Shown here in pieces: positions 287-44,451 of a stretch of 44,663 nucleotides of DNA. The position numbers were made by a program, and so were the translations under genes. The stretch spans positions 1-44,663 of IMG/VR virus record IMGVR_UViG_3300036987_000028; one strand, given 5' to 3'. The stretch comes from a virus (lineage: Duplodnaviria > Caudoviricetes). The number at the start of each line of letters is the position of its first letter. Positions within the stretch are counted from its first letter, which is position 1. A model generated the notes under the pieces. That model made no database searches. It saw nothing but the letters and a program-made list of their open reading frames with translations, and was not told the origin of the DNA.

Positions 287-2713
287 ATGACCCTCACCGC
301 TCAGATCGAACGTGAAAACCACATGGCCGCCGAGGGCGCCCGCCGCGTCCGCAAGGGCGTGGAAAAGGACATGGCCAGAGGCGCCGCCGCCGAGACACCG
401 GCTGGCGTGGTCCTCATGAAGCGGTGCGTCGGACCCGTATCCGATGCCATCCGGGAGTTCGTCCAGGGCGCCTTCACCAAGAAGGGCGCCGGGCGCCGCA
501 ATAGCGTGGCGGTCCACCTTCAGGACGTAGACCCCGACCTCGCCGCGTTCATCGCGGTCAAGGAAGCCCTAGGCGGGGCTAGCCGCCATCTCTCCCTCAA
601 GACCACCGCTATCAACATCGCCCACCGGCTGGAGCTGGAGCTTCTGGCCAATCGGTTTGAAGAGGCCAACGAAGCCCTGTACCGGGCGATCATCCGTAAC
701 GCCAAGGCCCGTGGCCTCGCCCCCGAACGCCACGCCAAGGCGGTCCAGCTCGCGGCTAGCAAGTTCGGCATCGCGGACACCAAGTGGACCCCGACCGAGC
801 GCGTCCACATCGGGACGAAGCTCGTGGAGCTTTTCGCCGAGACCGGAGGCCCCGTGGAGCTGGAGCGCGTCCAGGAAAGCAAGACCAGTAAGCAAATCCG
901 TCTGAAGCTCACCGAACGGGCCGATGAGTGGTTCAAGAAGCACAACACCGCCGCGGGCCTCGCCCGACCCCTGTACCTCCCCGCCGTGTGCCCGCCCAAG
1001 CCCTGGACGGACGTGGTGGGGGGCTCGTATTTCTCGCCCGCCATCCGGGAGCGCTCGGTCATCTCGCGGTCGTTCCCCGGCCAGCTCGACCTACTCCGCA
1101 TGGGCGACATGAGCGTGGTCTACGCCGGGCTCAACGGGCTCCAGGAAACCCCGTGGCGGATCAACCGGCGCGTCTTCGCGGTCATGCAAGAGGCTTGGGA
1201 CAAGGAACTCCCAATGCCCTGCATCCCGCCGCAGTCCGATGAGCCGATCCCGGCGACGCCCCCGGAAGTGGAGGCCGCCGAGAAGGGTAGCGACGTGCGT
1301 AAGGCGTGGCGTAATACCGTCCGCCCGATCCACGAGCGCAACCGTGAGCGCCGCTCGCGTCGTTTCGAGTTCGCTCGTGGGCTGGACATCGCGAAGGACA
1401 ACCTGGAGCACGAAGCGATCTACTTCCCGCACCGCTGCGATTTCCGCGGCCGGGCCTACGCGGCGGCCACCACACTCAACCCACAAGGGCCGGATGAGAT
1501 CAAGGCGTTGCTGGAGTTCGGCGAGGGCAAGCCCCTTGGCGAGCGCGGCGTGTTTTGGCTCGGCGTTCACGGCGCGAACCTATTTGGCAACGATAAGGTC
1601 AGCCTCGACGAACGCTTTCAGTGGGCCGCCAAGCACTGGCAAGCGGCGGTATCGGTCGCCCGTAATCCTCTGAGCAATCAGTGGTGGACGGAGGCGGACA
1701 AGCCGTGGAGCTTCCTCGCATGGTGCTTTGAGTGGGCGGAAGCGAGCGACGATTACGTCTCGCGCCTTCCCATTGCGCTCGACGGCTCGTGCAACGGCAT
1801 CCAGCACTACTCGGCGATGCTCCGGGACGAAGTGGGCGGCGCTGCCGTCAACCTCATCCCCGGCAAGAAGCCGAGAGACATCTATCAGACCGTCGCCGAT
1901 GCCGTGAAGGCCAGCATCGCCAAGATCGTGGAGGACGACGAACACCCCGAGCACAACACCGCGTGGGGCTGGCACCACTTCCCTATCGACCGCAAAGTCA
2001 CCAAGCGGCCGGTCATGGTGCTTCCCTACGGCGGCATGTTCAAGTCGTGCATGGAATACGTCGCCGAGGCCGTCCACGACAAGGTGAAGGGCGGGGCTGA
2101 GAACCCCTTCGGCGATGAGCTACGCCCGGCATCGGCGTGGCTGGCGAAGCGCGTATGGGAGGGCATCGACGATACCGTTGTCGCCGCCCGTGCCGCTATG
2201 TCATGGCTCCAGAAGGTCGCGCGGATCACGAGCAAGCACGGCGTCCCCCTCACCTGGACGGCGCCGAGCGGGTTCGTGGTGCGGCAGCATTATAGGAAGG
2301 TGCGTGGCAACTTGATTGAAACCCGGTTCAACGGAAAGGTTATTTCGTTCCGAGGGAGCCAACCCACGGATGAGATCGACGACAACCGGCAAGCGTCCTC
2401 GGTCGCCCCTAACTTTGTCCACTCTATGGATGCGGCGGCGATGATGCTGACGATTGCCGCTTGTCGCGAAGCCGGGCTCCGGTCCTTCGCAATGATCCAC
2501 GACAGCTACGGCACACACGCCGCGGACACCGACAAGCTGGCCGCGATCCTCCGTGACCAGTTCGTAGAAATGTACCTCGCTCACGACGTGCTCGCCGAGT
2601 TCGAAGCGTCGGTTCGCGCCGCGCTTCCCGAAGGCACTGAGCTGCCGCCCCGTCCCGAGACTGGCCACCTGGATTTGGAAGCCGTGAAGGACAGCGCGTA
2701 CTTCTTTGCCTAG
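287..2713 (+). CDS. T7-like single-subunit DNA-directed RNA polymerase (gp1)
   Basis: Motifs DFRGRAY, LDGSCNGIQHYSAMLRD, RKVTKRPVMVLPYG, PNFVHSMDA, IHDSYGTH, C-terminal YFFA. Confidence 0.98.
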   Translation: MTLTAQIERENHMAAEGARRVRKGVEKDMARGAAAETPAGVVLMKRCVGPVSDAIREFVQGAFTKKGAGRRNSVAVHLQDVDPDLAAFIAVKEALGGASRHLSLKTTAINIAHRLELELLANRFEEANEALYRAIIRNAKARGLAPERHAKAVQLAASKFGIADTKWTPTERVHIGTKLVELFAETGGPVELERVQESKTSKQIRLKLTERADEWFKKHNTAAGLARPLYLPAVCPPKPWTDVVGGSYFSPAIRERSVISRSFPGQLDLLRMGDMSVVYAGLNGLQETPWRINRRVFAVMQEAWDKELPMPCIPPQSDEPIPATPPEVEAAEKGSDVRKAWRNTVRPIHERNRERRSRRFEFARGLDIAKDNLEHEAIYFPHRCDFRGRAYAAATTLNPQGPDEIKALLEFGEGKPLGERGVFWLGVHGANLFGNDKVSLDERFQWAAKHWQAAVSVARNPLSNQWWTEADKPWSFLAWCFEWAEASDDYVSRLPIALDGSCNGIQHYSAMLRDEVGGAAVNLIPGKKPRDIYQTVADAVKASIAKIVEDDEHPEHNTAWGWHHFPIDRKVTKRPVMVLPYGGMFKSCMEYVAEAVHDKVKGGAENPFGDELRPASAWLAKRVWEGIDDTVVAARAAMSWLQKVARITSKHGVPLTWTAPSGFVVRQHYRKVRGNLIETRFNGKVISFRGSQPTDEIDDNRQASSVAPNFVHSMDAAAMMLTIAACREAGLRSFAMIHDSYGTHAADTDKLAAILRDQFVEMYLAHDVLAEFEASVRAALPEGTELPPRPETGHLDLEAVKDSAYFFA

Positions 2714-2717
2714 ATCG

Positions 2718-2731
2718 TCCTATTAAGTGGA
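2718..2731. promoter_or_regulatory. Candidate operator TCCTATTAAGTGGA (consensus palindrome TCCACTTAAGTGGA)
   Basis: Related 14-mers at 37193, 37651, 42274, all intergenic. Confidence 0.5.
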
Positions 2732-2752
2732 CTTTCCCGTTAACGCATCAAT

Positions 2753-2769
2753 TAACCTGCCTATTTGGA
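2753..2769 (+). promoter_or_regulatory. Candidate phage RNAP promoter TAACCTGCCTATTTGGA (replication module)
   Basis: 16/17 identical to 12650-12666; located right after the RNAP gene. Confidence 0.55.
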
Positions 2770-2795
2770 ACGAACCCTTTCGGAGATCACTCACG

Positions 2796-2990
2796 ATGAA
2801 ATCGCAGATCACCATTCGGAAAGGCGCCGCCTTCAACGACGTGACCATCGTCACTCCGAAAGGGAAGACGCTCTACTTCGACCTCTCGACAATGACGCGG
2901 CCCGAGCGTTCGAAATTCCACTCTCAGTTCATGGCCGCGTATCGGAAAGAGAACCCTATGCGACCACGCACTGTGGAGGCGCGGGCTTGA
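2796..2990 (+). CDS. Hypothetical protein (64 aa)
   Basis: GGAG RBS before ATG 2796; stop overlaps next start. Confidence 0.65.
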   Translation: MKSQITIRKGAAFNDVTIVTPKGKTLYFDLSTMTRPERSKFHSQFMAAYRKENPMRPRTVEARA

Positions 2991-3265
2991 AGTCCACGTT
3001 CTCCTACGACGGCTTTGCGAATGCTTCCCCCGCGGAAGTGTCGCAAGCCGCCGTCGCGGTCATCAACGTCGTCCAAGAGAGCCAAGCGCACGTCCAAGCT
3101 CACGCTGTGGCGATTGCCTTCCTCATCATGTGCGACCGTTACCGCATCGAACCGCAGACCGTGTTCACCATCGTCAAGAACCTCATGGCTAGCGCCGAGG
3201 CCGGGCACTCGAAAGAGTACCGCGCCCTCATCGACTACGTGACGCACGAGCTGAACCAGGAATGA
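2987..3265 (+). CDS. Hypothetical phage protein (92 aa, TTG start)
   Basis: GGAGG RBS, TTGA start/stop overlap, coupled to next gene. Confidence 0.7.
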   Translation: MKSTFSYDGFANASPAEVSQAAVAVINVVQESQAHVQAHAVAIAFLIMCDRYRIEPQTVFTIVKNLMASAEAGHSKEYRALIDYVTHELNQE

Positions 3266-3408
3266 GTTGCGGCAAGTCCGTGGCTCTCAGACTTCACGCC
3301 GCGATCCTTCTCATGAAGCGCAGCGAACCCCTACCACTCGATCTTGAAACGTACCTCATCGCGCACGGCATTGACGTTGCCGCGCTCGATGCGAAGTACC
3401 GCAACTAG
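3262..3408 (+). CDS. Small hypothetical protein (48 aa, ...PLDLETYLIAHGIDV...)
   Basis: ATGA overlap; fills gap to SSB; below ORF-track cutoff, translated by hand. Confidence 0.6.
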   Translation: MSCGKSVALRLHAAILLMKRSEPLPLDLETYLIAHGIDVAALDAKYRN

Positions 3409-3417
3409 GAAAGACAT

Positions 3418-4158
3418 TTGGCGAAAGAAAAGAAGCCGAAGCGGATCACGCACAACTCCCCGAAGGGCGTGTTCTCTTGGCCGAAGCTGAACGAAGTCGA
3501 TTACGGCACCGAGAAGTATCCTGTTAAGGATGGCCAGTACGTGGTCAATCTCGTGGTCCCCGCCGCCGACAAGGCGACGAAGGCATTCATCAAGCTTCTG
3601 GAGCCGCTGTGGCGCGAAGCGCTGGAGGAAGGCAAGCAGAAGTTCGGCGAGCTGAGCGTTGCACAGCGCAAGAAGCTCAAAGCCGTGACCGAGAACCCGT
3701 TCTTCACGGAAGAGTTCGACCAGGAAACCGAAGAGCCGACCGGCAACATCATCTTCAAGTTCAAGATGGCCGCGTCGGGCAAGTACCGCGAAGGCCGTAA
3801 GGCTGGTCAGACGTGGACGGCGAAGCCGAACGTGTTCGACGCCTCGGGCGAGCTTCTCAAGAAGCTGCCTTCGATCTGGAGCGGCACGGTAGGTAAGGTC
3901 GCCTTCTACACGCGTCCCTACTTCATCGACGGTAGCGGCGCCGCTGGCCTCACACTGGCTCTTAGCGCCGTGCAGATCATCGACCTTGTGAGCGAGGGCG
4001 AGCGTTCGGCTGGCTCGTATGGCTTCGGCAAGGAAGAGGGCTACAAGGCCGAAGACAACGAGGACGACGAGACCTCGGATGAGGATGAGAACGACGACGA
4101 CACGAGCGACGAAGGCGGCGACGCCGACAGCTCGGATGGGGACGACGCCGACTTCTAG
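3418..4158 (+). CDS. Single-stranded DNA-binding protein (gp2.5-like)
   Basis: Position, AVQIIDL motif, very acidic C-terminal tail ending in Phe. Confidence 0.93.
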   Translation: MAKEKKPKRITHNSPKGVFSWPKLNEVDYGTEKYPVKDGQYVVNLVVPAADKATKAFIKLLEPLWREALEEGKQKFGELSVAQRKKLKAVTENPFFTEEFDQETEEPTGNIIFKFKMAASGKYREGRKAGQTWTAKPNVFDASGELLKKLPSIWSGTVGKVAFYTRPYFIDGSGAAGLTLALSAVQIIDLVSEGERSAGSYGFGKEEGYKAEDNEDDETSDEDENDDDTSDEGGDADSSDGDDADF

Positions 4159-16842: not shown

Positions 16843-16915
16843 TCCCCCGCATAGCTCAATGGTAGAGCGCCCGGCATGGACCGGGAAGACCCACGTTCAA
16901 ATCGTGGTCGGGGGA
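16843..16915 (+). ncRNA. tRNA-like element (6-nt anticodon loop, bulged acceptor stem, no CCA)
   Basis: D arm GCTC-AATGGTA-GAGC, stem CCCGG/CCGGG with loop CATGGA, T arm CCACG-TTCAAAT-CGTGG, acceptor TCCCCCG(C)A/TCGGGGGA. Confidence 0.75.
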
Positions 16916-17099
16916 CGTTTACCCATGCGAAGTGTGAAAGACCGCGCCCCTCTTTAGGCGGCGGCCACACGCCCTAAGGCAAGCCTACGTGGCTCGCTCT
17001 GTCAGCTCTTGCGAGAGCGGCTGAAGCGAACAACCTCAGAACGCGATGCCCTGGACGGCGAAGGCATATGAACCTTCATCGCATCAGGACACTACCACT

Positions 17100-18058: not shown

Positions 18059-18092
18059 GGCCTCACATGGGAAACCGTGTGGGGCCTTTTTT
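18059..18092 (+). terminator. Intrinsic terminator after major capsid gene (T-phi position)
   Basis: GGCCTCACATGG-GAAA-CCGTGTGGGGCC-TTTTTT. Confidence 0.88.
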
Positions 18093-34717: not shown

Positions 34718-36487
34718 TTGAAAGAACATAAAGACCGCCTAATGAACTCGGCGGCCGACTTGTCGGAAGACCCTCTCAAGGGGGACTTCCGCAAGTTCGT
34801 GTACGTCGTGTGGAAGCATCTCGGCCTCCCCGACCCGACGCCTATCCAGTACGACATTGCGTGGTGGCTCCAGCACGGTCCTAAACGTGCGGTCATCCAA
34901 GCCTTCCGCGGCGTCGGTAAGAGCTGGATCACGGTCGCGTTCGTCCTCTGGACGCTCTACTGCGACCCACAAAAGAAGATCATGGTTGTCTCGGCCAACG
35001 CGCCGAAGGCATCCGAGTTCTCGACGTTCTGTCTCCAGCTACTCCGCGACATGCCGCTACTGCGGCACCTACAGCCCCGCGCAGATCAGCGTAGCTCCAC
35101 GATCAGCTTCGACGTTGGCCCGGCAAAGCCCGATCAGTCACCGTCCGTGAAGTCGCTCGGCATCAATGGCCAGCTCGCCGGTTCACGCGCCGACATCATC
35201 GTCCCCGACGACATCGAAATCCCGAAGAACTCTGACACCGAGACCAAGCGCGAGATATTGCTTGAGGCTGTGAAAGAGTTCGACGCCGTTCTGAAGCCGC
35301 TCCCCACGAGCCGTATCGTCTACCTGGGGACGCCGCAGACGGAACAGTCGATCTACAATAAGCTCCCCGAGCGCGGCTACATCATCCGCGTTTGGCCGTC
35401 GCGCTATCCGACCCCTGAGAAGGCGGCCCGGTATGGCGCCCGGCTCGCTCCGAAGATCGCGAAGCTACTCGCTGCCGATCCTAGCTTGGGCATCAATCGC
35501 GCCCCCACGGACCCGGTACGCTTCGACGAGACCGAGCTTGCTGAGCGCGAACTCTCCTACGGTCGCTCGGGCTACGCGCTGCAATTCCAGCTCGATACCT
35601 CGCTCAGCGACGCGGACAAGTACCCGCTCAAACTCGCCGACCTCATCGTCCACCCGTGCGATCCCTATAACGCCCCTATCGACTTCGCGTGGGCCAGCTC
35701 GCCAAGCCTCTCTTGGAAAGACCTCCCCGTCGTCGGTCTCCAGGGCGACCGCTACTTCATGCCGATGTGGTGGAGCCCTACGGTCACGCTCTACGAGGGG
35801 ACCATCATGGCCGTCGATCCCTCGGGACGCGGCAAAGACGAGACCTCTTACGCCGTCGTGAAGCTACTGCACGGTCGCCTCTTCCTCGTGGCGTCTGGCG
35901 GCTTCCTCGGCGAAGGCTACTCCGATGAAGTGCTGAAGAGCATCCTCATGGTGGCCAAGAAGCACGACGTGAAGAAGATCATCGCCGAGCCGAACTTCGG
36001 CGGCGGCATGTTCGTCAAGCTTCTCCAGGGCGCCGCACAGAAGCATTACGCTTGTGGCGTGGAGGATGCCGAGTGGTCCTCGACCATGAAAGAGAACCGC
36101 ATCGTCGATACGCTGGAGCCGGTCATGAACCAGCACCGGCTCATCGTTGATCCGGCTGTGATCCAGGCCGACTACGAGAGCACGAAGAAATACGACGGGG
36201 ACAGATCACCCGAGTACAGATTGTTCTACCAGCTCCCCCGCATGGTGAAACAGAAGGGCGCTCTACGGCACGACGACCGCCTCGACGCGCTCGCCATGGC
36301 CGTCGCCTACTGGACGCGCCACATGGCCCGAGACACCGACAAGGCCGTCACGGATCACCACGAGGCCGCGCTCAATGCCGAGCTGGAGAAATTCATGAAG
36401 GGAGCGCTCGGCGGACAGGCACAACCCGAGCGTAGGTGGGCCTCAAAGGTCGCGCGGAACGCGAATAATAATCAGCGTACCCACTAG
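34718..36487 (+). CDS. terL: Terminase large subunit (gp19-like)
   Basis: QAFRGVGKSWIT, GSRADII, LGTPQTE, DPSGRGKDET, HDDRLDALA; start may be ATG 34742. Confidence 0.97.
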   Translation: MKEHKDRLMNSAADLSEDPLKGDFRKFVYVVWKHLGLPDPTPIQYDIAWWLQHGPKRAVIQAFRGVGKSWITVAFVLWTLYCDPQKKIMVVSANAPKASEFSTFCLQLLRDMPLLRHLQPRADQRSSTISFDVGPAKPDQSPSVKSLGINGQLAGSRADIIVPDDIEIPKNSDTETKREILLEAVKEFDAVLKPLPTSRIVYLGTPQTEQSIYNKLPERGYIIRVWPSRYPTPEKAARYGARLAPKIAKLLAADPSLGINRAPTDPVRFDETELAERELSYGRSGYALQFQLDTSLSDADKYPLKLADLIVHPCDPYNAPIDFAWASSPSLSWKDLPVVGLQGDRYFMPMWWSPTVTLYEGTIMAVDPSGRGKDETSYAVVKLLHGRLFLVASGGFLGEGYSDEVLKSILMVAKKHDVKKIIAEPNFGGGMFVKLLQGAAQKHYACGVEDAEWSSTMKENRIVDTLEPVMNQHRLIVDPAVIQADYESTKKYDGDRSPEYRLFYQLPRMVKQKGALRHDDRLDALAMAVAYWTRHMARDTDKAVTDHHEAALNAELEKFMKGALGGQAQPERRWASKVARNANNNQRTH

Positions 36488-36492
36488 CCCCC

Positions 36493-37225
36493 AGGAAGCC
36501 CGTACAGGCCCTCCAGTTAAGTTGGCTACCTACATAGCTGGAGGGTCTCAAGTCGGGCGCAAAACCCTATCCCAGCTCGATCCTCGGCCTATCCGGGGCT
36601 TGTCCCTCCCTCGCCGCACGGCCGGAGGCAAGACCTGAGAGAGCAAATCCCATCTCACCCCCGGCGCGGCAACAGTGAACGTTAGTCCACTGAAGAGGAA
36701 CTTACGTTGAACTAGACAAGGTACTTACGAGATAGGGGATTACCACAACCTATCACTCACCTATCAATTGATTATCAGAGATTATTATAGGTCTAAAACA
36801 ATGATACCACGACGTGTCAACCCCCGCTTCGCGGGATGACCACCCTAGGCGCTGTGCCTGTTTAGGAGCCCGTCCCCGGATGGCCCCGTAACAGCAACTA
36901 GGTTCCCCATGTCCAAAGCTCGTTACCGCTTCACTCCGCGCTCACGCTCGCGAGCTGAAGATGAATACGACGACGAGTTCCTCGACAGTCCCTTCCTACC
37001 AGACCTCACCGTCTATTCCCCCGATACCCCATGGGAAGACACCGGGTTGGTCACAGCCGAAGGCGTCCCCATCGAACGGTACGGCGCCGAGCCCATTGGC
37101 TTCCTCACCTTCGATGACACTTCAGAGGACGCGTAGAGCCTCACGACAAGCTCGTACAGTGCCCTTCCGAACTTGTGCCGCTATGTAGATAGCCCACTTG
37201 AGTGGAGGGCCTGTACGAGCTTCCT
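36493..37225. repeat. 46-bp inverted repeat pair (36493-36538 / 37180-37225, 41/46 identical)
   Basis: Left copy reverse-complemented GCTATGTAGGTAGCCAACTTAACTGGAGGGCCTGTACGGGCTTCCT vs right copy GCTATGTAGATAGCCCACTTGAGTGGAGGGCCTGTACGAGCTTCCT. Confidence 0.85.
36909..37136 (+). CDS. Small acidic hypothetical protein (75 aa)
   Basis: Clean ORF with DTGL....G.PI.R...PIGF pattern. Confidence 0.6.
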   Translation: MSKARYRFTPRSRSRAEDEYDDEFLDSPFLPDLTVYSPDTPWEDTGLVTAEGVPIERYGAEPIGFLTFDDTSEDA

Positions 37226-37484
37226 ACGGGCTCTGAACAAGGGTGCGACAGGCTATCCCGATGTTTGGGGTAGAATGCGCGAGCCTCCCCTCGAAAGTGA
37301 AACTAAGGAGAATACCCCCCGGCGCCCCATGCGGCTCGCACGTCATGCGAGGGCCGATCCCTAAGGCTTTGCCACATGCTTTGCCACTGGCCACGCTAGA
37401 ACGCCCGTAAACATTGGGCTCGCGAAGGATGTAAGATGCCTTGACGCGTGGTGACGAGGGCATGACGAGGCCCGGCCGCGCATG

Positions 37485-37650: not shown

Positions 37651-37684
37651 TCCACTTGACGGGAGGATCGGGATTTGCGATTAT
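37651..37684 (+). promoter_or_regulatory. Early sigma70-like promoter with overlapping candidate operator
   Basis: AT-rich tract upstream; TTGACG (37656-37661), 17 nt, GATTAT (37679-37684) with TG extension; TCCACTTGACGGGA covers the -35. Confidence 0.7.
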
Positions 37685-37690
37685 GAGTTG

Positions 37691-38030
37691 GTCAGAGCGG
37701 CGACGCACTGACTGGCCGGAGGGCAACCGGCTCACCCACGGATCGCAGCGAGCACTGCGAGGGGACACAAAGGGCACCATGCGACACGAGGCAAGGCCCG
37801 TAGGCATTGAGTAGGCAACAGACAGCGCACCAAGACGCGCCATCGCCGAAAGAGCTAGCGGCATTCCGGCCAAGTTGTGAGCGAGCGCTGAAGAGGCGAG
37901 AGCATGGGACGTGTGTGAAGGCGCTTAGGCGTGAGCCGGGCGCAATCACACTCTCTCAAATCGAAACCTAGGGCGTGAGTAACGCCCGATGGTCCTGGGG
38001 GTTGGCATCCCCGGCTGAAGAGATAAGCCA
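37691..38030 (+). ncRNA. Long structured leader / candidate ncRNA ahead of the cassette array
   Basis: No RBS-supported ORF; hairpins GTCAG/CTGAC, GCCGG/CCGGC, TCGCAG/CTGCGA, GCGCTTAGGC-GTGA-GCCGGGCGC, GGGCGT/ACGCCC. Confidence 0.55.
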
Positions 38031-38047
38031 CTGAGAGAGCAAACACC

Positions 38048-38230
38048 ATGATTGACGCACTCATGACGCACGACCAACAGATGACATTCGCCTTCGGGTA
38101 TCTAGGGCTGGCCATCGTCGCCTTGTCAGTGATCTTGAACAAGGTCGCGGCCAAGTATGACGCTCAGGACCAACGCGAAGATGCTGCGATGGATCAAGCG
38201 CCGAAGGGTTGGGCGTTCGCTGAAACCTAA
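38048..38230 (+). CDS. Cassette 1: small single-TM protein (60 aa)
   Basis: Box + ATG; hydrophobic FAFGYLGLAIVALSVIL. Confidence 0.75.
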   Translation: MIDALMTHDQQMTFAFGYLGLAIVALSVILNKVAAKYDAQDQREDAAMDQAPKGWAFAET

Positions 38231-38235
38231 CAGAG

Positions 38236-38267
38236 CTAGGGCCTCGGGGGAAACCTCGGGGCCTTTT
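38236..38267 (+). terminator. Cassette terminator repeat (type A)
   Basis: AGGGCCTCGGGG-GAAA-CCTCGGGGCCTT + T tract. Confidence 0.8.
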
Positions 38268-38321
38268 CTATTAGTGTGAACGCACACTTAAGTGCGTCAC
38301 ACAACTGAGAGAGCAAAGCAT

Positions 38322-38468
38322 ATGTGGACTATCGCAAACATCGTCGTGGCCCTGTGGATGCTTACCATGGGCGCGGATGATGCCTCACGAGGTCACTACG
38401 GGATGGCCGCAGTGGCGTTCTTCCTGGCATTCGTGAACATCGGCGGCGCATTGCTCGCCTTCATCTAA
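38322..38468 (+). CDS. Cassette 2: two-TM membrane peptide (48 aa)
   Basis: Box + ATG; MWTIANIVVALWMLTMG...AVAFFLAFVNIGGALLAFI; below track cutoff. Confidence 0.75.
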   Translation: MWTIANIVVALWMLTMGADDASRGHYGMAAVAFFLAFVNIGGALLAFI

Positions 38469-38470
38469 GC

Positions 38471-38502
38471 CTAGGGCCTCGGGGGAAACCTCGGGGCCTT
38501 TT
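38471..38502 (+). terminator. Cassette terminator repeat (type A)
   Basis: Exact 32-nt repeat. Confidence 0.8.
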
Positions 38503-38549
38503 GCGTTAAATGTACACTTATTGTGAACATCAACCTGAGAGAGCAACAC

Positions 38550-38657
38550 ATGCGCGAAGACGCAAGCCTGTCCGACACGATCCGCCGCATCAATCGCGAG
38601 ATAGATGAGGCCGTCCGGGAGCGGGAAGAGAACGTGAGCATGTTGGAATTGATCTGA
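38550..38657 (+). CDS. Cassette 3: charged helical peptide (35 aa)
   Basis: Box + ATG; MREDASLSDTIRRINREIDEAVREREENVSMLELI. Confidence 0.7.
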   Translation: MREDASLSDTIRRINREIDEAVREREENVSMLELI

Positions 38658-38658
38658 G

Positions 38659-38692
38659 CTAGGGCCTCGGCGAGCAATCGTCGGGGCCTTTT
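38659..38692 (+). terminator. Cassette terminator repeat (type B, GCAA loop)
   Basis: AGGGCCTCGGCGA-GCAA-TCGTCGGGGCCTT + T tract. Confidence 0.8.
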
Positions 38693-38743
38693 GCTTTTTG
38701 TGTGAGCCGCATTCAAGCGGCCACTACTGAGAGAGCAAACACC

Positions 38744-39085
38744 ATGTGCAAAAGCTGCGACGACATCGTGACTAGTGACCTTAGCCGCTTCGGCTTCCGT
38801 GAAAAGCGGTTGGCCGCCGAGTTGCTACTCGCCTACACCAAGTCCACACCGGACTGGCTCGGCGATAACGTCACAATCGCGCTGAACACGCACTCCGGCA
38901 ACGTCTTCCTCACGGATGAGGATTTCAACGTCGGCATGATGAATGGTGAAACGCTAGAGCAATGGCATTGGTGCGGCGAATGCGGCAACGAGGGATTTGC
39001 TGAAGACGTGTTCAAGTTGGTCGCCGGAGACGACGACGACGACGAACCCAAGCGTGTCTGTAACTCGTGCGAACACGAGTTCTAA
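38744..39085 (+). CDS. Cassette 4: acidic protein with three CxxC motifs (113 aa)
   Basis: Box + ATG; CKSC, CGEC, CNSC. Confidence 0.8.
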   Translation: MCKSCDDIVTSDLSRFGFREKRLAAELLLAYTKSTPDWLGDNVTIALNTHSGNVFLTDEDFNVGMMNGETLEQWHWCGECGNEGFAEDVFKLVAGDDDDDEPKRVCNSCEHEF

Positions 39086-39087
39086 GC

Positions 39088-39119
39088 CTAGGGCCTCGGG
39101 GGAAACCTCGGGGCCTTTT
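39088..39119 (+). terminator. Cassette terminator repeat (type A)
   Basis: Exact repeat. Confidence 0.8.
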
Positions 39120-39164
39120 GCTTTTGATAGAGCCGCAATCAAGCGGCCACTGAGAGAGCACACC

Positions 39165-39410
39165 ATGCACATTGAGCACGAGAGCGAGCGCTTCGCTTGG
39201 TACTACGATAGCCGGATGGGCGTCGGACGGTTTGTTCGCAAGTCGGACGATGCGTTGACGTACCTGGAAACTGGCACGGATTGCCAAGACGTGCGCCGGT
39301 CTCTTCGGAGGCTTGAGCAAAAGACTAGCTCGCCTCGCTATCCGAAGGCGGCGCCGTCATTCGCGGACATCTTCGACTGTATCGCGACGGAGTATGAGTT
39401 CCACAACTAG
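39165..39410 (+). CDS. Cassette 5: hypothetical protein (81 aa)
   Basis: Box + ATG 39165. Confidence 0.78.
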   Translation: MHIEHESERFAWYYDSRMGVGRFVRKSDDALTYLETGTDCQDVRRSLRRLEQKTSSPRYPKAAPSFADIFDCIATEYEFHN

Positions 39411-39412
39411 AC

Positions 39413-39445
39413 CTAGGGCCTCGGCGAGCAATCGTCGGGGCCTTT
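39413..39445 (+). terminator. Cassette terminator repeat (type B)
   Basis: GCAA-loop variant, TTTCTCATTT tail. Confidence 0.75.
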
Positions 39446-39494
39446 CTCATTTGTGCGAGCCTCACTCAAGCGGCCGCTACTGAGAGAGCAAAAC

Positions 39495-39788
39495 ATGCAC
39501 TGGTATGAAATCACCATCTGTGTGGTCATGGGCCTCACGCTCTTCGGCATCGTGGTCATCCACGAGCTGCGCGAAGTGTTTGAAGAGCCCGCGGACGCGA
39601 GAATGCAACGAGCCATGCGAGAGATCGCGCGGGACATCCCGTGGGCGGACAATAGCAGGGCTAAGCCTAGGGCATCGGCTACGGTGCGCCGGGAACGCGT
39701 CAAGCTCCCTACAACGAAGCCTAAGGCATCTGCGAAGGTGCTCGCTGGCGGGAACGACAATCTGCCTAGCTTCGGCTCGGCGGCTTGA
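39495..39788 (+). CDS. Cassette 6: N-terminal TM protein with SsrA-like C-terminus (97 aa)
   Basis: Box + ATG; ends GGNDNLPSFGSAA. Confidence 0.75.
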   Translation: MHWYEITICVVMGLTLFGIVVIHELREVFEEPADARMQRAMREIARDIPWADNSRAKPRASATVRRERVKLPTTKPKASAKVLAGGNDNLPSFGSAA

Positions 39789-39790
39789 GC

Positions 39791-39822
39791 ATGGGGCCTC
39801 GGGGGAAACCTCGGGGCCTTTT
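39791..39822 (+). terminator. Cassette terminator repeat (type A, ATGG start)
   Basis: Same hairpin, 5' flank varied. Confidence 0.8.
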
Positions 39823-39873
39823 GCTTTTGTGAGACCTCGCACTCAAGCGGGGCTCACTGAGAGAGCAAACACC

Positions 39874-40158
39874 ATGCAAACACTCATCGAACGCGCCATG
39901 CTGGTCTATCAGTGCGGCATCGCCAACGTCTTCGCGGTCAAGAGCTTCGACCTCAACGTCGCAACTCGGGAAGAGCCGGTGCGCCTCATGCAATCCGACT
40001 TCCGTACCTGTGAAGCCTTTGCGCGGGGCATGTCAGTCGCCGGGACCTCTGTCCGCTCGGCACACTGCAACATGGCCGGTGACATCGCGTTGCAAGATTG
40101 GTCGCTTGATCTGGACGATGCTCCGTTCCGCGATCAAATGCGTCCAGTCGCGATCTAG
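39874..40158 (+). CDS. Cassette 7: hypothetical protein (94 aa)
   Basis: Box + ATG 39874; LVYQCGIANVF...CN.AGD. Confidence 0.78.
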   Translation: MQTLIERAMLVYQCGIANVFAVKSFDLNVATREEPVRLMQSDFRTCEAFARGMSVAGTSVRSAHCNMAGDIALQDWSLDLDDAPFRDQMRPVAI

Positions 40159-40160
40159 CT

Positions 40161-40191
40161 CTAGGGCCTCGGGGGAAACCTCGGGGCCTTT
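40161..40191 (+). terminator. Cassette terminator repeat (type A, TTTCTCATTT tail)
   Basis: Same hairpin. Confidence 0.75.
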
Positions 40192-40243
40192 CTCATTTGT
40201 GCGAGCCGCGATCAAGCGAGCCGCACACTGAGAGAGCAAGCAC

Positions 40244-40522
40244 ATGCAAACCACGATCACACCTGTTTCGTGCAAGTACGGCGCCCCGATGGGCCGACGC
40301 ACACAGCCCGGCGATCCTTCTGGCGAGCGCATTCACCTGCGACGCGTTCGGATTGATTGCGGCGGCTATGACAGCGGCGGCGCCTATTGGGGCCTAGGGC
40401 AACCACTCTTTGAGGCGTTCACGCCTAACGGAGACTGGTCAACCTACTTCCGAGCACGGGACCGGGACGCCGCGAAAGCAGCGGTGCGGGAAGACTACCC
40501 CGACGTGAAGTTCTTTAGATGA
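40244..40522 (+). CDS. Cassette 8: hypothetical protein (92 aa)
   Basis: Box + ATG; YGAPMGR...GGYDSGGAYWG. Confidence 0.82.
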   Translation: MQTTITPVSCKYGAPMGRRTQPGDPSGERIHLRRVRIDCGGYDSGGAYWGLGQPLFEAFTPNGDWSTYFRARDRDAAKAAVREDYPDVKFFR

Positions 40523-40524
40523 GC

Positions 40525-40556
40525 CTAGGGCCTCGGGGGAAACCTCGGGGCCTTTT
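40525..40556 (+). terminator. Cassette terminator repeat (type A)
   Basis: Exact repeat. Confidence 0.8.
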
Positions 40557-40604
40557 GCTTTTAGTGGGGGGCAATCATGCCCGTCAAAACTGAGAGAGCA
40601 CCAC

Positions 40605-41075
40605 ATGAACGCACTTAGCATCGCAGTCGCAGTGGCCAACGCCGAGGCCCCGATCATCGACACCACCGCGGAGGAAGTTATCGAAGTCTCCGCGCAAACC
40701 GTCTTCAACGAGTGCTATCGCAACCTGTTTTCGCAGGGTGCGCAAAGCGCGAACGATGGCGGCGGTTGCATGTATCGGGGACCGAACGACTGCAAATGCG
40801 CCGTTGGGTTCTTCATCCCGGATGCCAACTATTATCCGAGGCTGGAGGGCTCAACGATTGAAGCGTCGAAGGTCTTGAACGCGCTGCCTCTGGAGTATCA
40901 CGCTCACAAGGGCTTGCTTGGCGACCTTCAGGCGAACGTCCACGACATTAAGGGTGCGTGGTCGGAGCCGCGCGACTTGCACAACGCATTCGCCGCGGTT
41001 GCAGCACGTCACGGACTGAAGATGCCGCGCGAGTATCCGCCGGTCGCCTATGGTCCGCAGTTCCTACACTACTAA
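40605..41075 (+). CDS. Cassette 9: hypothetical protein with Cys/His motifs (156 aa)
   Basis: Box + ATG; QG..S...CMYRG....CAVG..IPD...LQ...HD. Confidence 0.82.
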   Translation: MNALSIAVAVANAEAPIIDTTAEEVIEVSAQTVFNECYRNLFSQGAQSANDGGGCMYRGPNDCKCAVGFFIPDANYYPRLEGSTIEASKVLNALPLEYHAHKGLLGDLQANVHDIKGAWSEPRDLHNAFAAVAARHGLKMPREYPPVAYGPQFLHY

Positions 41076-41077
41076 GC

Positions 41078-41109
41078 CTAGGGCCTCGGGGGAAACCTCG
41101 GGGCCTTTT
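41078..41109 (+). terminator. Cassette terminator repeat (type A)
   Basis: Exact repeat. Confidence 0.8.
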
Positions 41110-41151
41110 GCTTTTTGTACGGGGCTAATCCCGCAAACTGGAGAGAGCATC

Positions 41152-41364
41152 ATGAGCACCACGCGCCACATCGGAGCCGACGACAAGGCCGCTATCGTTG
41201 CACACCTGGAGACCGCCGCCCGCACCTACACCGCGGAGAGCGTGAACGTCGGGAAGCGCACGAAGGCGTACAAGGAACTCACAGCCAAGGCTAAGCAGGC
41301 TGGCGAGTTCGCCGACATCATCGAAGCGTCCAGCGGCGACTACGTAGTGACGTTCTCGGAATGA
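41152..41364 (+). CDS. Cassette 10: hypothetical protein (70 aa)
   Basis: CTGGAGAGAGC + ATG 41152. Confidence 0.78.
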   Translation: MSTTRHIGADDKAAIVAHLETAARTYTAESVNVGKRTKAYKELTAKAKQAGEFADIIEASSGDYVVTFSE

Positions 41365-41367
41365 AGC

Positions 41368-41399
41368 CTAGGGCCTCGGGGGAAACCTCGGGGCCTTTT
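41368..41399 (+). terminator. Cassette terminator repeat (type A)
   Basis: Exact repeat. Confidence 0.8.
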
Positions 41400-41442
41400 G
41401 CTTTTGTGCGGGCACATGCTCGCGCAAACTGAGAGAGCACCC

Positions 41443-41679
41443 ATGAAAGCCTTCTACACTGGCGCGGCCGTCGCTGCCTTCGTGTCCGCTATGTTCATCG
41501 TTGCCGCTATCACGGCGACCACATCGCGAGCGCAGAGCTACGGCGGCTATGCCAACTCCGGCTTCGGTATGTCGCGAACGTTCTCGCAATGCCGCCAGTC
41601 TCTCGATCCCGGCAAGCCTATCGTCTGCGGTCGCAAGTCCGCGGAGAAGGCGCGGCCGGTAGCGCGTAAGAAGCGCTAA
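41443..41679 (+). CDS. Cassette 11: small exported basic protein (78 aa)
   Basis: Box + ATG; signal-like N-terminus ending SRA; two Cys. Confidence 0.75.
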   Translation: MKAFYTGAAVAAFVSAMFIVAAITATTSRAQSYGGYANSGFGMSRTFSQCRQSLDPGKPIVCGRKSAEKARPVARKKR

Positions 41680-41685
41680 CCAAAC

Positions 41686-41717
41686 CTAGGGCCTCGGGGG
41701 AAACCTCGGGGCCTTTT
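41686..41717 (+). terminator. Cassette terminator repeat (type A), last of the array
   Basis: Exact repeat. Confidence 0.8.
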
Positions 41718-41765
41718 CCCGTTTTAGGTGGGCGTTAATTCCCTACAGTGAACCTCTGTCTAATG

Positions 41766-41808
41766 ATGGCTTCGTATCGCGTTGTCGATACGGGGCCATT
41801 TTCATTTT
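41766..41808 (+). terminator. Diverged terminator closing the array
   Basis: ATGGCTTCGTATCG/CGATACGGGGCCAT stem + T tract; followed by TTTTGTACGGGGCTA as after the repeat at 41078. Confidence 0.6.
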
Positions 41809-42002
41809 GTACGGGGCTATGTTGTTATAGCAACAGCCTCGAAATTCGCCGATTTCATCGCAACCAAATTACTCAACGCGATGCATTAATTATAACTTTC
41901 GGCGAACCCGAAACGAGGACTCAGTTAGGTGATAACCTGCGACGGGTAGTACACCCTGCAACGACAGGTGTAGCCAGACTGAAGGGGAAGGGGACTATCG
42001 CA

Positions 42003-42260
42003 ATGCCGCACACTGCTGCCGGTCAACCGCCAGACTGTTCTCGCTGGTTGGGCGACCGACTTTATGAGTTCACCGACTATCTCAAGACGTTCATGCCCGA
42101 CATGCTGTTGTTGATACCTGAAGGTGACTACGACAGCATGGCGCTGATTGAGACGTGTCACGCACGATCCATTCTCGCGGAGACAGGCGACGCGCCGCAT
42201 CCCGGCCGTACCTTTTTCCCCAAGTGGGTGTGGGACACCGTCTTTACAACCAATCAGTGA
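42003..42260 (+). CDS. Hypothetical protein (85 aa)
   Basis: Purine-rich RBS before ATG 42003; the upstream part of track ORF 41748 crosses a terminator and AT-rich DNA. Confidence 0.45.
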   Translation: MPHTAAGQPPDCSRWLGDRLYEFTDYLKTFMPDMLLLIPEGDYDSMALIETCHARSILAETGDAPHPGRTFFPKWVWDTVFTTNQ

Positions 42261-42273
42261 TTTCCTAAAATAG

Positions 42274-42287
42274 TCCTGTTAAGTGGG
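42274..42287. promoter_or_regulatory. Candidate operator TCCTGTTAAGTGGG
   Basis: Matches the 14-bp family; upstream of the MarR-like gene. Confidence 0.5.
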
Positions 42288-42348: not shown

Positions 42349-42702
42349 ATGGCTTCCGGCAGAGAGGCGAGCTTGGGTAGTATGCCGAGCAAGTTCCTGA
42401 AGGCTTTGGAACGGCTTCAGGACACTCATGCCGACCTAACCGTTCGACAGCTACGCTACCTCATGTTTGTCGCCGAGCATCCCGGCCTCACCGTTGCCGA
42501 GGTTTACCGGGCGCTCGGATCACATGCGAGCATAGCGTCGCGCACGTTCGCCATCCTCTCCGATGTGGGTACGCCCAAGGTGGAGGGGTTAGGCTTCGTG
42601 GACATGCGTCCAGACGAGAAGGACCGGCGATTACGAAGATTGTTCCTAAGCGCTAAGGGTGGGCGTTTCCTCGCCGACCTCCGTAAAGACCTCGGGCTCT
42701 AG
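42349..42702 (+). CDS. MarR-like winged-helix transcriptional regulator
   Basis: LTVRQL..L..V...PG.T..E...SR...L...G.V....D..DRR...L.LS.KG. Confidence 0.88.
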   Translation: MASGREASLGSMPSKFLKALERLQDTHADLTVRQLRYLMFVAEHPGLTVAEVYRALGSHASIASRTFAILSDVGTPKVEGLGFVDMRPDEKDRRLRRLFLSAKGGRFLADLRKDLGL

Positions 42703-42723
42703 CAATAGAGCCCTTCTCTTTTT
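42694..42723 (+). terminator. Terminator-like hairpin between regulator and integrase
   Basis: GGGCTCTA-GCAA-TAGAGCCC-TTCTCTTTTT. Confidence 0.7.
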
Positions 42724-42753
42724 GTAGAAGACCCGTAACTGAGAGAGCAAACC

Positions 42754-43824
42754 ATGCAGACACAGACCCTCACGAAAGGCGTCCGACCTCACGGCAATGG
42801 CTTCATTGCGGAGCCGATGTTCAAGGGGCGGCGTCACCGTCACATCTTCAAGACCGAGCTATCGGCCGCCGAGTGGCTACTGAAGGCTCGGGACGCCGAC
42901 AAGCGCGGCTTGCCGATCCCCGTGCCAGCGGAGACGCTGGTAGCGGCCAAGATCAGCACAGCGAAGGAAGTGGTGGACCACACCTTCAAGATGCGATGGG
43001 CTTCGCAGAAGTCCGCGGATCACACGCTCATGTGCGCCATGTGCTTCGTGCGTTGGGTAGGCCCCAGCGTCCCGGCTAGCGAGGCGTTCACGACGGAGAA
43101 GGTTCACGACTACGTTGCGGTCATGATGGCCGAGCGTAAGAGCGGCAGCACGATCAATCGCCACCTTGCCCGTATCTCGGCTATGGCGAAGATGGCCAAG
43201 GCTCTGAAGCTCATCGCGGACCTACCGCACCTTCCCCGTCAGAAGGAAGGTATGCACCGCATCCGCTACTATGAGCACCACGAGGAAGAGGAAATCCACG
43301 CCAAGCTCCGCGAGTGGGGCTTTGACGATTGGGTAGACTACTTCATCTTCCTCGCCGATATGGGAACCCGCCCCAGCGAGGCCGCTCGCTTCGACTGGCG
43401 CGACTACCGTAACGGCGTCTGTCACTTTGCACAGACGAAGAACGACCTAGCGCGGTCGCTGAAGCCTACGACCCGAGTGGTCGAAGCGCTCAAGCGGCAG
43501 CGAGCCCGCCACCACAACGCTCCCGGCCCGTTCGCTTGGGTTACGCCGCGGGAGGCGCGGACACTGTGGGACCGCCTACGCACTCACATCAAGTGGCTTG
43601 GTCCCGATACCGTCATGTATACGTTCCGGCATACTTGCGCTTCACGGCTCACGATTGCCGGTGTAGACCTCAACCGCATCAAGACGTGGATGGGGCACAA
43701 GACGATCATCACGACGCTCAAGTACGCCCATCTTGCGCCGAGCAGCATGGACGCGGGAACGGACGCCCTGGAGGCGTTCCAATCCCTAAACCGTAAGGCA
43801 CCTGAAGGGGAGTTGGTCACTTGA
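42754..43824 (+). CDS. int: Tyrosine recombinase / phage integrase
   Basis: STINRHL, MGTRPSE (R), TKN (K), YTFRHT, MGHK, KYAH (Y); near attR. Confidence 0.96.
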   Translation: MQTQTLTKGVRPHGNGFIAEPMFKGRRHRHIFKTELSAAEWLLKARDADKRGLPIPVPAETLVAAKISTAKEVVDHTFKMRWASQKSADHTLMCAMCFVRWVGPSVPASEAFTTEKVHDYVAVMMAERKSGSTINRHLARISAMAKMAKALKLIADLPHLPRQKEGMHRIRYYEHHEEEEIHAKLREWGFDDWVDYFIFLADMGTRPSEAARFDWRDYRNGVCHFAQTKNDLARSLKPTTRVVEALKRQRARHHNAPGPFAWVTPREARTLWDRLRTHIKWLGPDTVMYTFRHTCASRLTIAGVDLNRIKTWMGHKTIITTLKYAHLAPSSMDAGTDALEAFQSLNRKAPEGELVT

Positions 43825-44442: not shown

Positions 44443-44451
44443 GACTTAAAA
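44443..44451 (+). repeat. attR core GACTTAAAA
   Basis: Identical to 118-126. Confidence 0.9.

Follow-up and report, generated by a model that had tools for sequence, protein, structure and literature searches.

Three described systems come closest to the locus treated here. R1.1 of phage T7 has been described as an RNase III site (PMC6121014; PMC1540722). Clustered ribozymes of prophages, of the hammerhead class, cleave, and one of the clusters lies with ardA, marR and an integrase gene (Perreault et al. 2011, PMC3088659). In T4-type phages, recombination between the repeated units known as PeSL shuffles the genes that lie between them (Arbiol et al. 2010, PMC2839356). Processing sites in T7, hammerhead-punctuated prophage operons (2011) and repeat-mediated shuffling are already known. 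The DNA considered here is IMG/VR virus record IMGVR_UViG_3300036987_000028, positions 1 to 44,663 (the window, meaning that whole stretch of 44,663 nucleotides). It is the whole integrated genome of a T7-like phage, which the first-pass annotation of these letters had called temperate, with genes for RNA polymerase, terminase and tyrosine integrase and with tRNA-Leu att cores. Downstream of the terminase it carries an array of 11 small genes separated by near-identical hairpin spacers. We suggest, with a probability of roughly 0.58, that these spacers mark cut points that would turn one long early message into single-gene messages. The array is one lineage's own form of a habit already described in phages, to which this work adds a clade-level picture of ribozyme and hairpin in one slot and the direct mosaicism of the copies. 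Our search of the literature outside subscription papers found no description of homogenised hairpin-spacer arrays in temperate T7-like phages.

The 11 open reading frames (ORFs) lie at 38048-41679 and encode 60, 48, 35, 113, 81, 97, 94, 92, 156, 70 and 78 amino acids. The first-pass annotation had described them as single-gene units of 35-156 amino acids with a box before and a hairpin repeat after each, and counts and distances agree with this description. The box CTGAGAGAGCA is found exact before 10 ORFs and with a one-base insertion before the remaining one (41139), at 2-6 nt from the ATG; allowing at most one mismatch, the window has 13 matches, where shuffled sequence gave a mean of 1.14. 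The hairpin repeat follows every stop (11 matches in the array; shuffle mean, 0.33) and begins 1-6 nt past it, so that the proposed limit of 5 nt holds for 10 of the copies and fails for one. Each spacer, 76-91 nt from stop to ATG, is laid out as a 12-13-bp hairpin with a GNRA loop (hairpin 1), a linker rich in U, a further hairpin (hairpin 2) and the box. Hairpin 1, whose loop is of type A in nine copies and of type B in two, has its stem beginning 3-8 nt past the stop; because of G-U pairs, its stability on the sense strand is double that on the antisense strand (-22.5 versus -11.5 kcal/mol). Hairpin 2 varies in sequence and folds in 10 of 10 cases, with a mean z of -3.4 against shuffles. 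This grammar had been thought unique to the array, which is to be qualified by a simpler unit of array type before the integrase gene (42694-42753; hairpin, U tract and exact box), an orphan box at 36635 with no start codon nearby, and a second hairpin past the array (41765-41820) with a tail of the spacer kind. The box was also considered as a promoter for the phage polymerase and rejected, as the bases 5' of it are variable and middle and late genes lack it.

At 53 nt ahead of the first gene there is an element absent from the first-pass annotation, a predicted self-cutting hammerhead ribozyme of type II. It has GAAA at 37963, the core CUGAAGA at 38015 and a predicted cut after GUC at 37992-37994. 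It agrees with the rules that Perreault et al. (2011, PMC3088659) gave for core, stems and pseudoknot, in all core positions (C3 U4 G5 A6 N7 G8 A9, G12 A13 A14 A15, U16 H17), in the paired stems that flank the core, and in the loop I pseudoknot of at least 4 bp with the 3' tail, which here consists of 4 bp, UGGC with GCCA (38003-38006 with 38027-38030, paired by eye). The search pattern matched only once over both strands of the window and never in 30 resampled windows. Moreover, a covariance model made from the hammerheads of five relatives gave this element 36.4 bits (E 2.8e-7), the next best score being 11.3 bits. Rfam did not report it at the gathering score of RF02276, and in a scan of the window tRNA was the sole family at gathering score. 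At the same threshold Rfam reported no hammerhead in the loci L329, L303, L304 and L322 (labels of this kind are our own locus handles); in L174, hammerheads found by the same pattern are confirmed by it. The stem III motif of the head element occurs at 62 viral loci, in 43 of which a core lies behind it, and the predicted ribozyme would belong to a hammerhead subtype overlooked by Rfam. The 11 spacers lack a catalytic core, the best of them reaching 9.5 bits under the hammerhead model (E 2.7).

Searches with the repeat itself, which the first-pass annotation had advised, gave no exact match in viral contigs and none by blastn against phage records; a gapped spacer pattern gave nine single matches and no array, and an integrase scan of viral contigs no relative. 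The comparison of arrays was made through relatives taken from terminase scans of viral, metagenome and genome collections (best 80 at most per scan), which yielded 67 distinct early regions between terminase and integrase. Strong hairpins adjacent to stops number 11 in the window, 10 in L003, 8 in L205 and 6 in L204, whereas the remaining 63 regions have 0-3 each; among the 67 regions, window included, only these four phages have six or more. Together with the partial loci L203 and L004 they form one branch (SH-aLRT 99 in a quick tree of 68 rows). Hammerhead matches number 22 in 358,598 nt of early regions, window included, against none in 573,717 nt upstream. They are found at least once in 13 of the 67 regions, and the five regions with at least two have 0-2 hairpin units. 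A hammerhead core heads the array in five of the six members of the clade, in L203 and L205 by a relaxed pattern only; the array head of L003 lacks it. In L004, also of this clade, a type II hammerhead lies directly past the stop of the second small gene. L330 combines hairpin spacers of the L003 type with a hammerhead-like element of non-consensus core (E 0.005), which follows a gene whose L003 counterpart precedes a hairpin. L329, with a T7-type terminase (50%), has eight type II hammerheads by the model, and all nine of its pattern matches end in one fixed start box; judged from its sequence, it has the grammar of the window with predicted ribozymes as spacers.

As separate observations, the hammerhead array of L329 extends over 400-4142, while L303, L304 and L322 carry 10, 9 and 7 type II hammerheads. 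L174 (8000-11090), a Devosia prophage, has four hammerhead matches in its early region, two of them above the Rfam threshold.

In the mechanism we propose, the host RNA polymerase would start at a single upstream promoter and produce one long message, whose leader would be cut off by the head hammerhead. A host nuclease specific for double strands, RNase III being the likeliest as in T7, would then cut the U-rich linker of each spacer. The message upstream of the cut would thereby end in a 3' hairpin that protects it, while the downstream message would receive a 5' hairpin together with a standard ribosome-binding box; these products would be the same as those of a cut by a type II hammerhead. 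What decides us in favor of processing over its rivals is that predicted self-cutting RNAs occupy the same stop-to-start slot in kin, and that the clustered prophage ribozymes of Perreault et al. (PMC3088659) cleave. On this evidence the repeats would owe their existence to a function at the RNA level, and shuffling would follow from their presence. If this is true, one clade of temperate T7-like phages makes single-gene early messages by self-cutting RNAs or by nuclease-cut hairpins in one slot, and the purpose of prophage hammerhead clusters, a question since 2011, becomes directly testable through element swaps.

For comparison with T7 we folded the hairpins upstream of its genes 0.3, 0.5, 1, 1.1 and 1.3, which we take to be its RNase III processing sites. 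T7 belongs to the same virus family and has its sites in the same genome region, with a hairpin past the stop, a lower stem and then a ribosome-binding site. The hairpins of both phages share an AGG/CCU stem base, a U-rich 3' side and pairing of the flanks, for which the Stouffer z is -3.7 in the window and in T7 alike. The window differs from T7 in having 11 units instead of five, near-identical copies, a longer and more GC-rich upper stem, a short lower stem and a second hairpin. Its helices of 12-13 bp, placed between early genes, are above the minimum of 11 bp given for RNase III sites (PMC1540722).

Several results weigh against processing at the spacers. A covariance model of the five T7 hairpins, which holds only five sequences, matched nothing in the window even with E allowed up to 10, and across four relatives it gave only two weak matches. 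The model built from the spacers of relatives found all 11 window spacers, but its best match in T7 was the TE terminator and no processing site. The lower stem has a length of only about 2-5 bp, and flank pairing is at null level in L003 and L204. The fit to the proximal and distal box rules of PMC1540722 is partial: with the register set by hand there are A-U and U-G pairs as in T7, whereas C-G stands at the second distal pair and U-U at one position of the proximal box, the rules being those of the E. coli enzyme and perhaps not those of the host's. The RNase III of Sinorhizobium (S.) meliloti requires longer duplexes than that of E. coli (PMC6121014). Nine of the 11 hairpins pass a terminator scan, and the terminator of the capsid gene (18059-18086) has the same stem ends as the hairpins. 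Finally, the arrays compared come from relatives with terminases at 63-67% and not from the two closest by terminase, P0002 (85%) and P0003 (84%). An apparent covariation in the lower stem was discounted as an alignment shift.

The terminator-like features can be read in another way, which we consider unlikely but worth weighing: hairpin 1 and its U tract may form a leaky intrinsic terminator, and a row of eleven would then give graded or silenced early expression, with read-through set by ribosomes at the adjacent stop or by an antiterminator at the 270-nt leader. By the terminator scan nine hairpins are GC-rich and followed by a U tract. Of the first 8 nt past the window hairpins 4-6 are U, a count similar to those of the capsid terminator (6) and T7 TE (4), and TE is the element that the model of the relatives ranked first in T7. 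However, U is scarce in the counterparts of L203 and L205 (means of 2.6 and 3.0 of 8), most of which are without a U tract, and 5 U of 8 are also present in three of the five processing-type hairpins of T7. A sigma70-like promoter was found in none of the 11 spacers, and hammerheads occupy the same slot in kin. The stems also lie 3-8 nt past stops, close enough to be masked by a coupled ribosome (PMC7858274), but this argument is not decisive because T7 TE itself begins 7 nt past a stop.

It is rather improbable that the spacers act as structures of an uncut message, in which hairpin 2 would hide the box until it was freed, either by the ribosome on the upstream gene or by hairpin 1 through its lower stem, with translational coupling as the outcome and the hairpins also blocking decay. 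The U tail does pair with the box in 7 of 10 folds and can alternatively pair with bases at the upstream stop, and the fold of hairpin 2 is constant while its sequence varies. Nevertheless, hairpin 2 is absent or reduced in many spacers of L003, L330 and L203, and a cutting ribozyme in the same slot of kin would be left unexplained. We give a similarly low chance to a bolder form of the processing idea, in which the spacers are former type II hammerheads that have lost the core and kept the layout (a first hairpin led by CCUAGGG, a cut linker, a second hairpin, and CUGA-GAG reused as ribosome box). A nuclease of host or phage would now do the cutting, ribozyme and hairpin would be interchangeable in the clade, and the homogenised copies would be an actively shuffling platform for early genes that forms circles. 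An integron-like system, in which the phage integrase would excise and insert cassettes at the repeats, is very improbable. In its favor, every unit holds a single gene and no surplus DNA, an integrase gene lies 1 kb from the array, and a contig joins 39412 to 38659 over a 33-nt repeat. But the integron-integrase profile, whose cut-off is 265 bits, gives this integrase only 22, and the enzyme has an ordinary tRNA-Leu att site; integron hallmarks are attC end boxes and a bottom-strand hairpin, but both boxes are present in none of the 11 spacers, and the top strand folds better in all 11. Nothing in the integrase profile or in the attC-box and fold tests of the spacers links the integrase to the repeats.

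Recombination between spacers is nevertheless likely, since relatives vary in gene content and order and the copies of the spacer show both homogenisation and mosaicism. Each of the two types of loop is found with each of the two types of tail, which makes four combinations, three of which are visible on single contigs among those listed; recombination or conversion between copies, or else repeated mutation, would therefore have taken place. Spacers are alike within one phage and unlike between phages: the median longest shared stretch is 31 nt among window spacers, 6-7 nt against other phages and 8 nt among T7 sites. As the genes sit between copies that share 30-40 identical bases, homologous recombination between them would likely homogenise the spacers and let genes be gained, lost or reordered without disturbing expression. 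Uniform spacers would thus offer a simple route to rapid turnover of early genes, the usual seat of host-takeover functions. In the relatives the architecture is kept and content and order differ, which is the opposite of the same genes in the same order that the first-pass annotation had named as speaking against its proposal. Indeed, L003 has shared gene families in another order than L205, and likewise than L330; L330 and L204, whose spacers differ, have one gene in common at 70% identity. The gain, loss and reordering by repeats that had been proposed finds partial support in variable content and order and in homogenised mosaic spacers; no single precise event was caught, because the relatives are distant (terminase 63-67%), and the proposal finds no tie between integrase and repeats. 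The contig that joins 39412 to 38659 (depth 6.4, against 4-8 for its neighbours) is likely an assembly artefact, since it stands alone, its depth is that of the genome, and each repeat interrupts the contigs of this sequencing run, which is probably that of the source sample; we do not use it as evidence of circles; contigs that break in this way cannot verify cassette order.

With PeSL the array shares a repeated stop-to-start hairpin and Shine-Dalgarno sequence around unknown genes. It was rejected as a PeSL system, for its units have no sigma70 promoter (0 of 11); moreover, the phage family is another one, and for the recombination between units and the mini-circles of PeSL the window offers mosaic copies and the one contig joint that is likely an artefact. 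With the hammerhead clusters of 2011 (PMC3088659) it has in common a prophage with marR and integrase, an element between stop and start, and variable genes, but in the window only the head element is a predicted ribozyme.

The cassette proteins are mutually unrelated, as had been noted at first; the best pair reaches only E 0.012. The 11 proteins had no match in Pfam, NCBIfam or PADLOC and a single one in PHROG, to a family of unknown function (phrog_17693), so that no known anti-defence or host-takeover family was found among them in these four collections. Atlas searches with c9 and c7 (Table 1) returned unnamed clusters only. Against the other arrays of the clade none of the 11 had a match; c8 alone has matches in related early regions, at five loci outside the clade, more distant and not always bounded by a hairpin unit.

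Table 1. Coordinates of features in and around the array
Feature	Position	Strand	Remarks
Predicted host sigma70-type early promoter, TTGACG-17-GATTAT with TG	37656..37684	+	sole candidate detected upstream of array
Type II hammerhead ribozyme motif (predicted)	37957..38030	+	pattern search, covariance model
Box and ORF c1	38031..38230	+	60 aa (amino acids), hydrophobic stretch
Spacer 1 and ORF c2	38231..38468	+	hairpin A, U tail, hairpin 2, box; 48 aa
Spacer 2 and ORF c3	38469..38657	+	35 aa
Spacer 3 and ORF c4	38658..39085	+	hairpin B; 113 aa, Cys-rich; 45 homologues, no named family
Spacer 4 and ORF c5	39086..39410	+	81 aa
Spacer 5 and ORF c6	39411..39788	+	hairpin B; 97 aa
Spacer 6 and ORF c7	39789..40158	+	94 aa; 104 homologues, no named family
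Spacer 7 and ORF c8	40159..40522	+	mosaic: hairpin A, tail of spacer 5; 92 aa; homologues in 5 related early regions
Spacer 8 and ORF c9	40523..41075	+	156 aa; phrog_17693, unknown function
Spacer 9 and ORF c10	41076..41364	+	variant box; 70 aa
Spacer 10 and ORF c11	41365..41679	+	78 aa, hydrophobic N-terminus
Closing hairpin A, then hairpin with spacer-like tail	41680..41820	+	41688-41715 and 41765-41820; no box
MarR-type regulator	42349..42702	+	own predicted promoter at 42243-42271
Tyrosine integrase	42694..43824	+	range includes hairpin, U tract and exact box ahead of the gene; 356 aa
Phage tRNA-Leu(TAA) and right att core GACTTAAAA	44344..44451	+	right core at 44443-44451; left core at 118-126

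The genome has the RNA polymerase gene (287-2713), followed by replication and virion genes, the terminase (34718-36487), the array, the MarR regulator, the tyrosine integrase and tRNA-Leu; the host tRNA-Leu is interrupted at a 9-bp core, of which the copies at both ends remain. Of the phages with a name, Mesorhizobium phage Lo5R7ANS (polymerase, 43%) and Rhizobium phage Pasto are nearest, and since the window shares their gene order we infer that the array is the first-transcribed early region. The temperate T7-like phages Lo5R7ANS, Pasto and LUZ100 (PMC10134795) resemble the window in having early genes, MarR, integrase, tRNA-Leu and RNA polymerase in its order, but the early regions of Lo5R7ANS and Pasto have no spacer family like that of the window. 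In the terminase tree the nearest named neighbours are Xanthobacter prophages, hence the host is probably an alphaproteobacterium. The support for the early promoter is positional, because the scan gave three sites in 11.6 kb, against 3.1 expected by chance; comparable sites are seen by eye at the matching position in L003, L203, L204, L205 and L004.

Between this predicted promoter and the hammerhead there is a structured leader of about 270 nt (37690-37950) with no Rfam match, whose DNA is 73-80% conserved between L003 and L330. A 14-bp motif, candidate for a MarR operator or a phage promoter, occurs on the plus strand at 2717-2730 (3' of the RNA polymerase gene), 36511-36524 (3' of the terminase) and 42273-42286 (over the MarR promoter), and on the minus strand at about 37652-37665, over the -35 box of the early promoter. 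A 53-nt inverted repeat (87%) at 36486-36538 and 37180-37232, probably part of genome-end processing, flanks the orphan box at 36635 and an ORF of 75 amino acids kept in relatives. A tRNA-like element of undefined anticodon (16844-16916) lies ahead of the capsid gene. Among other early regions, L082 (13694-20323), a distant T7-like relative, has repeated PeSL-like units of sigma70 promoter, hairpin and start box, and L075 (9842-17326) and L244 have repeated palindromic, operator-like motifs ahead of early genes.

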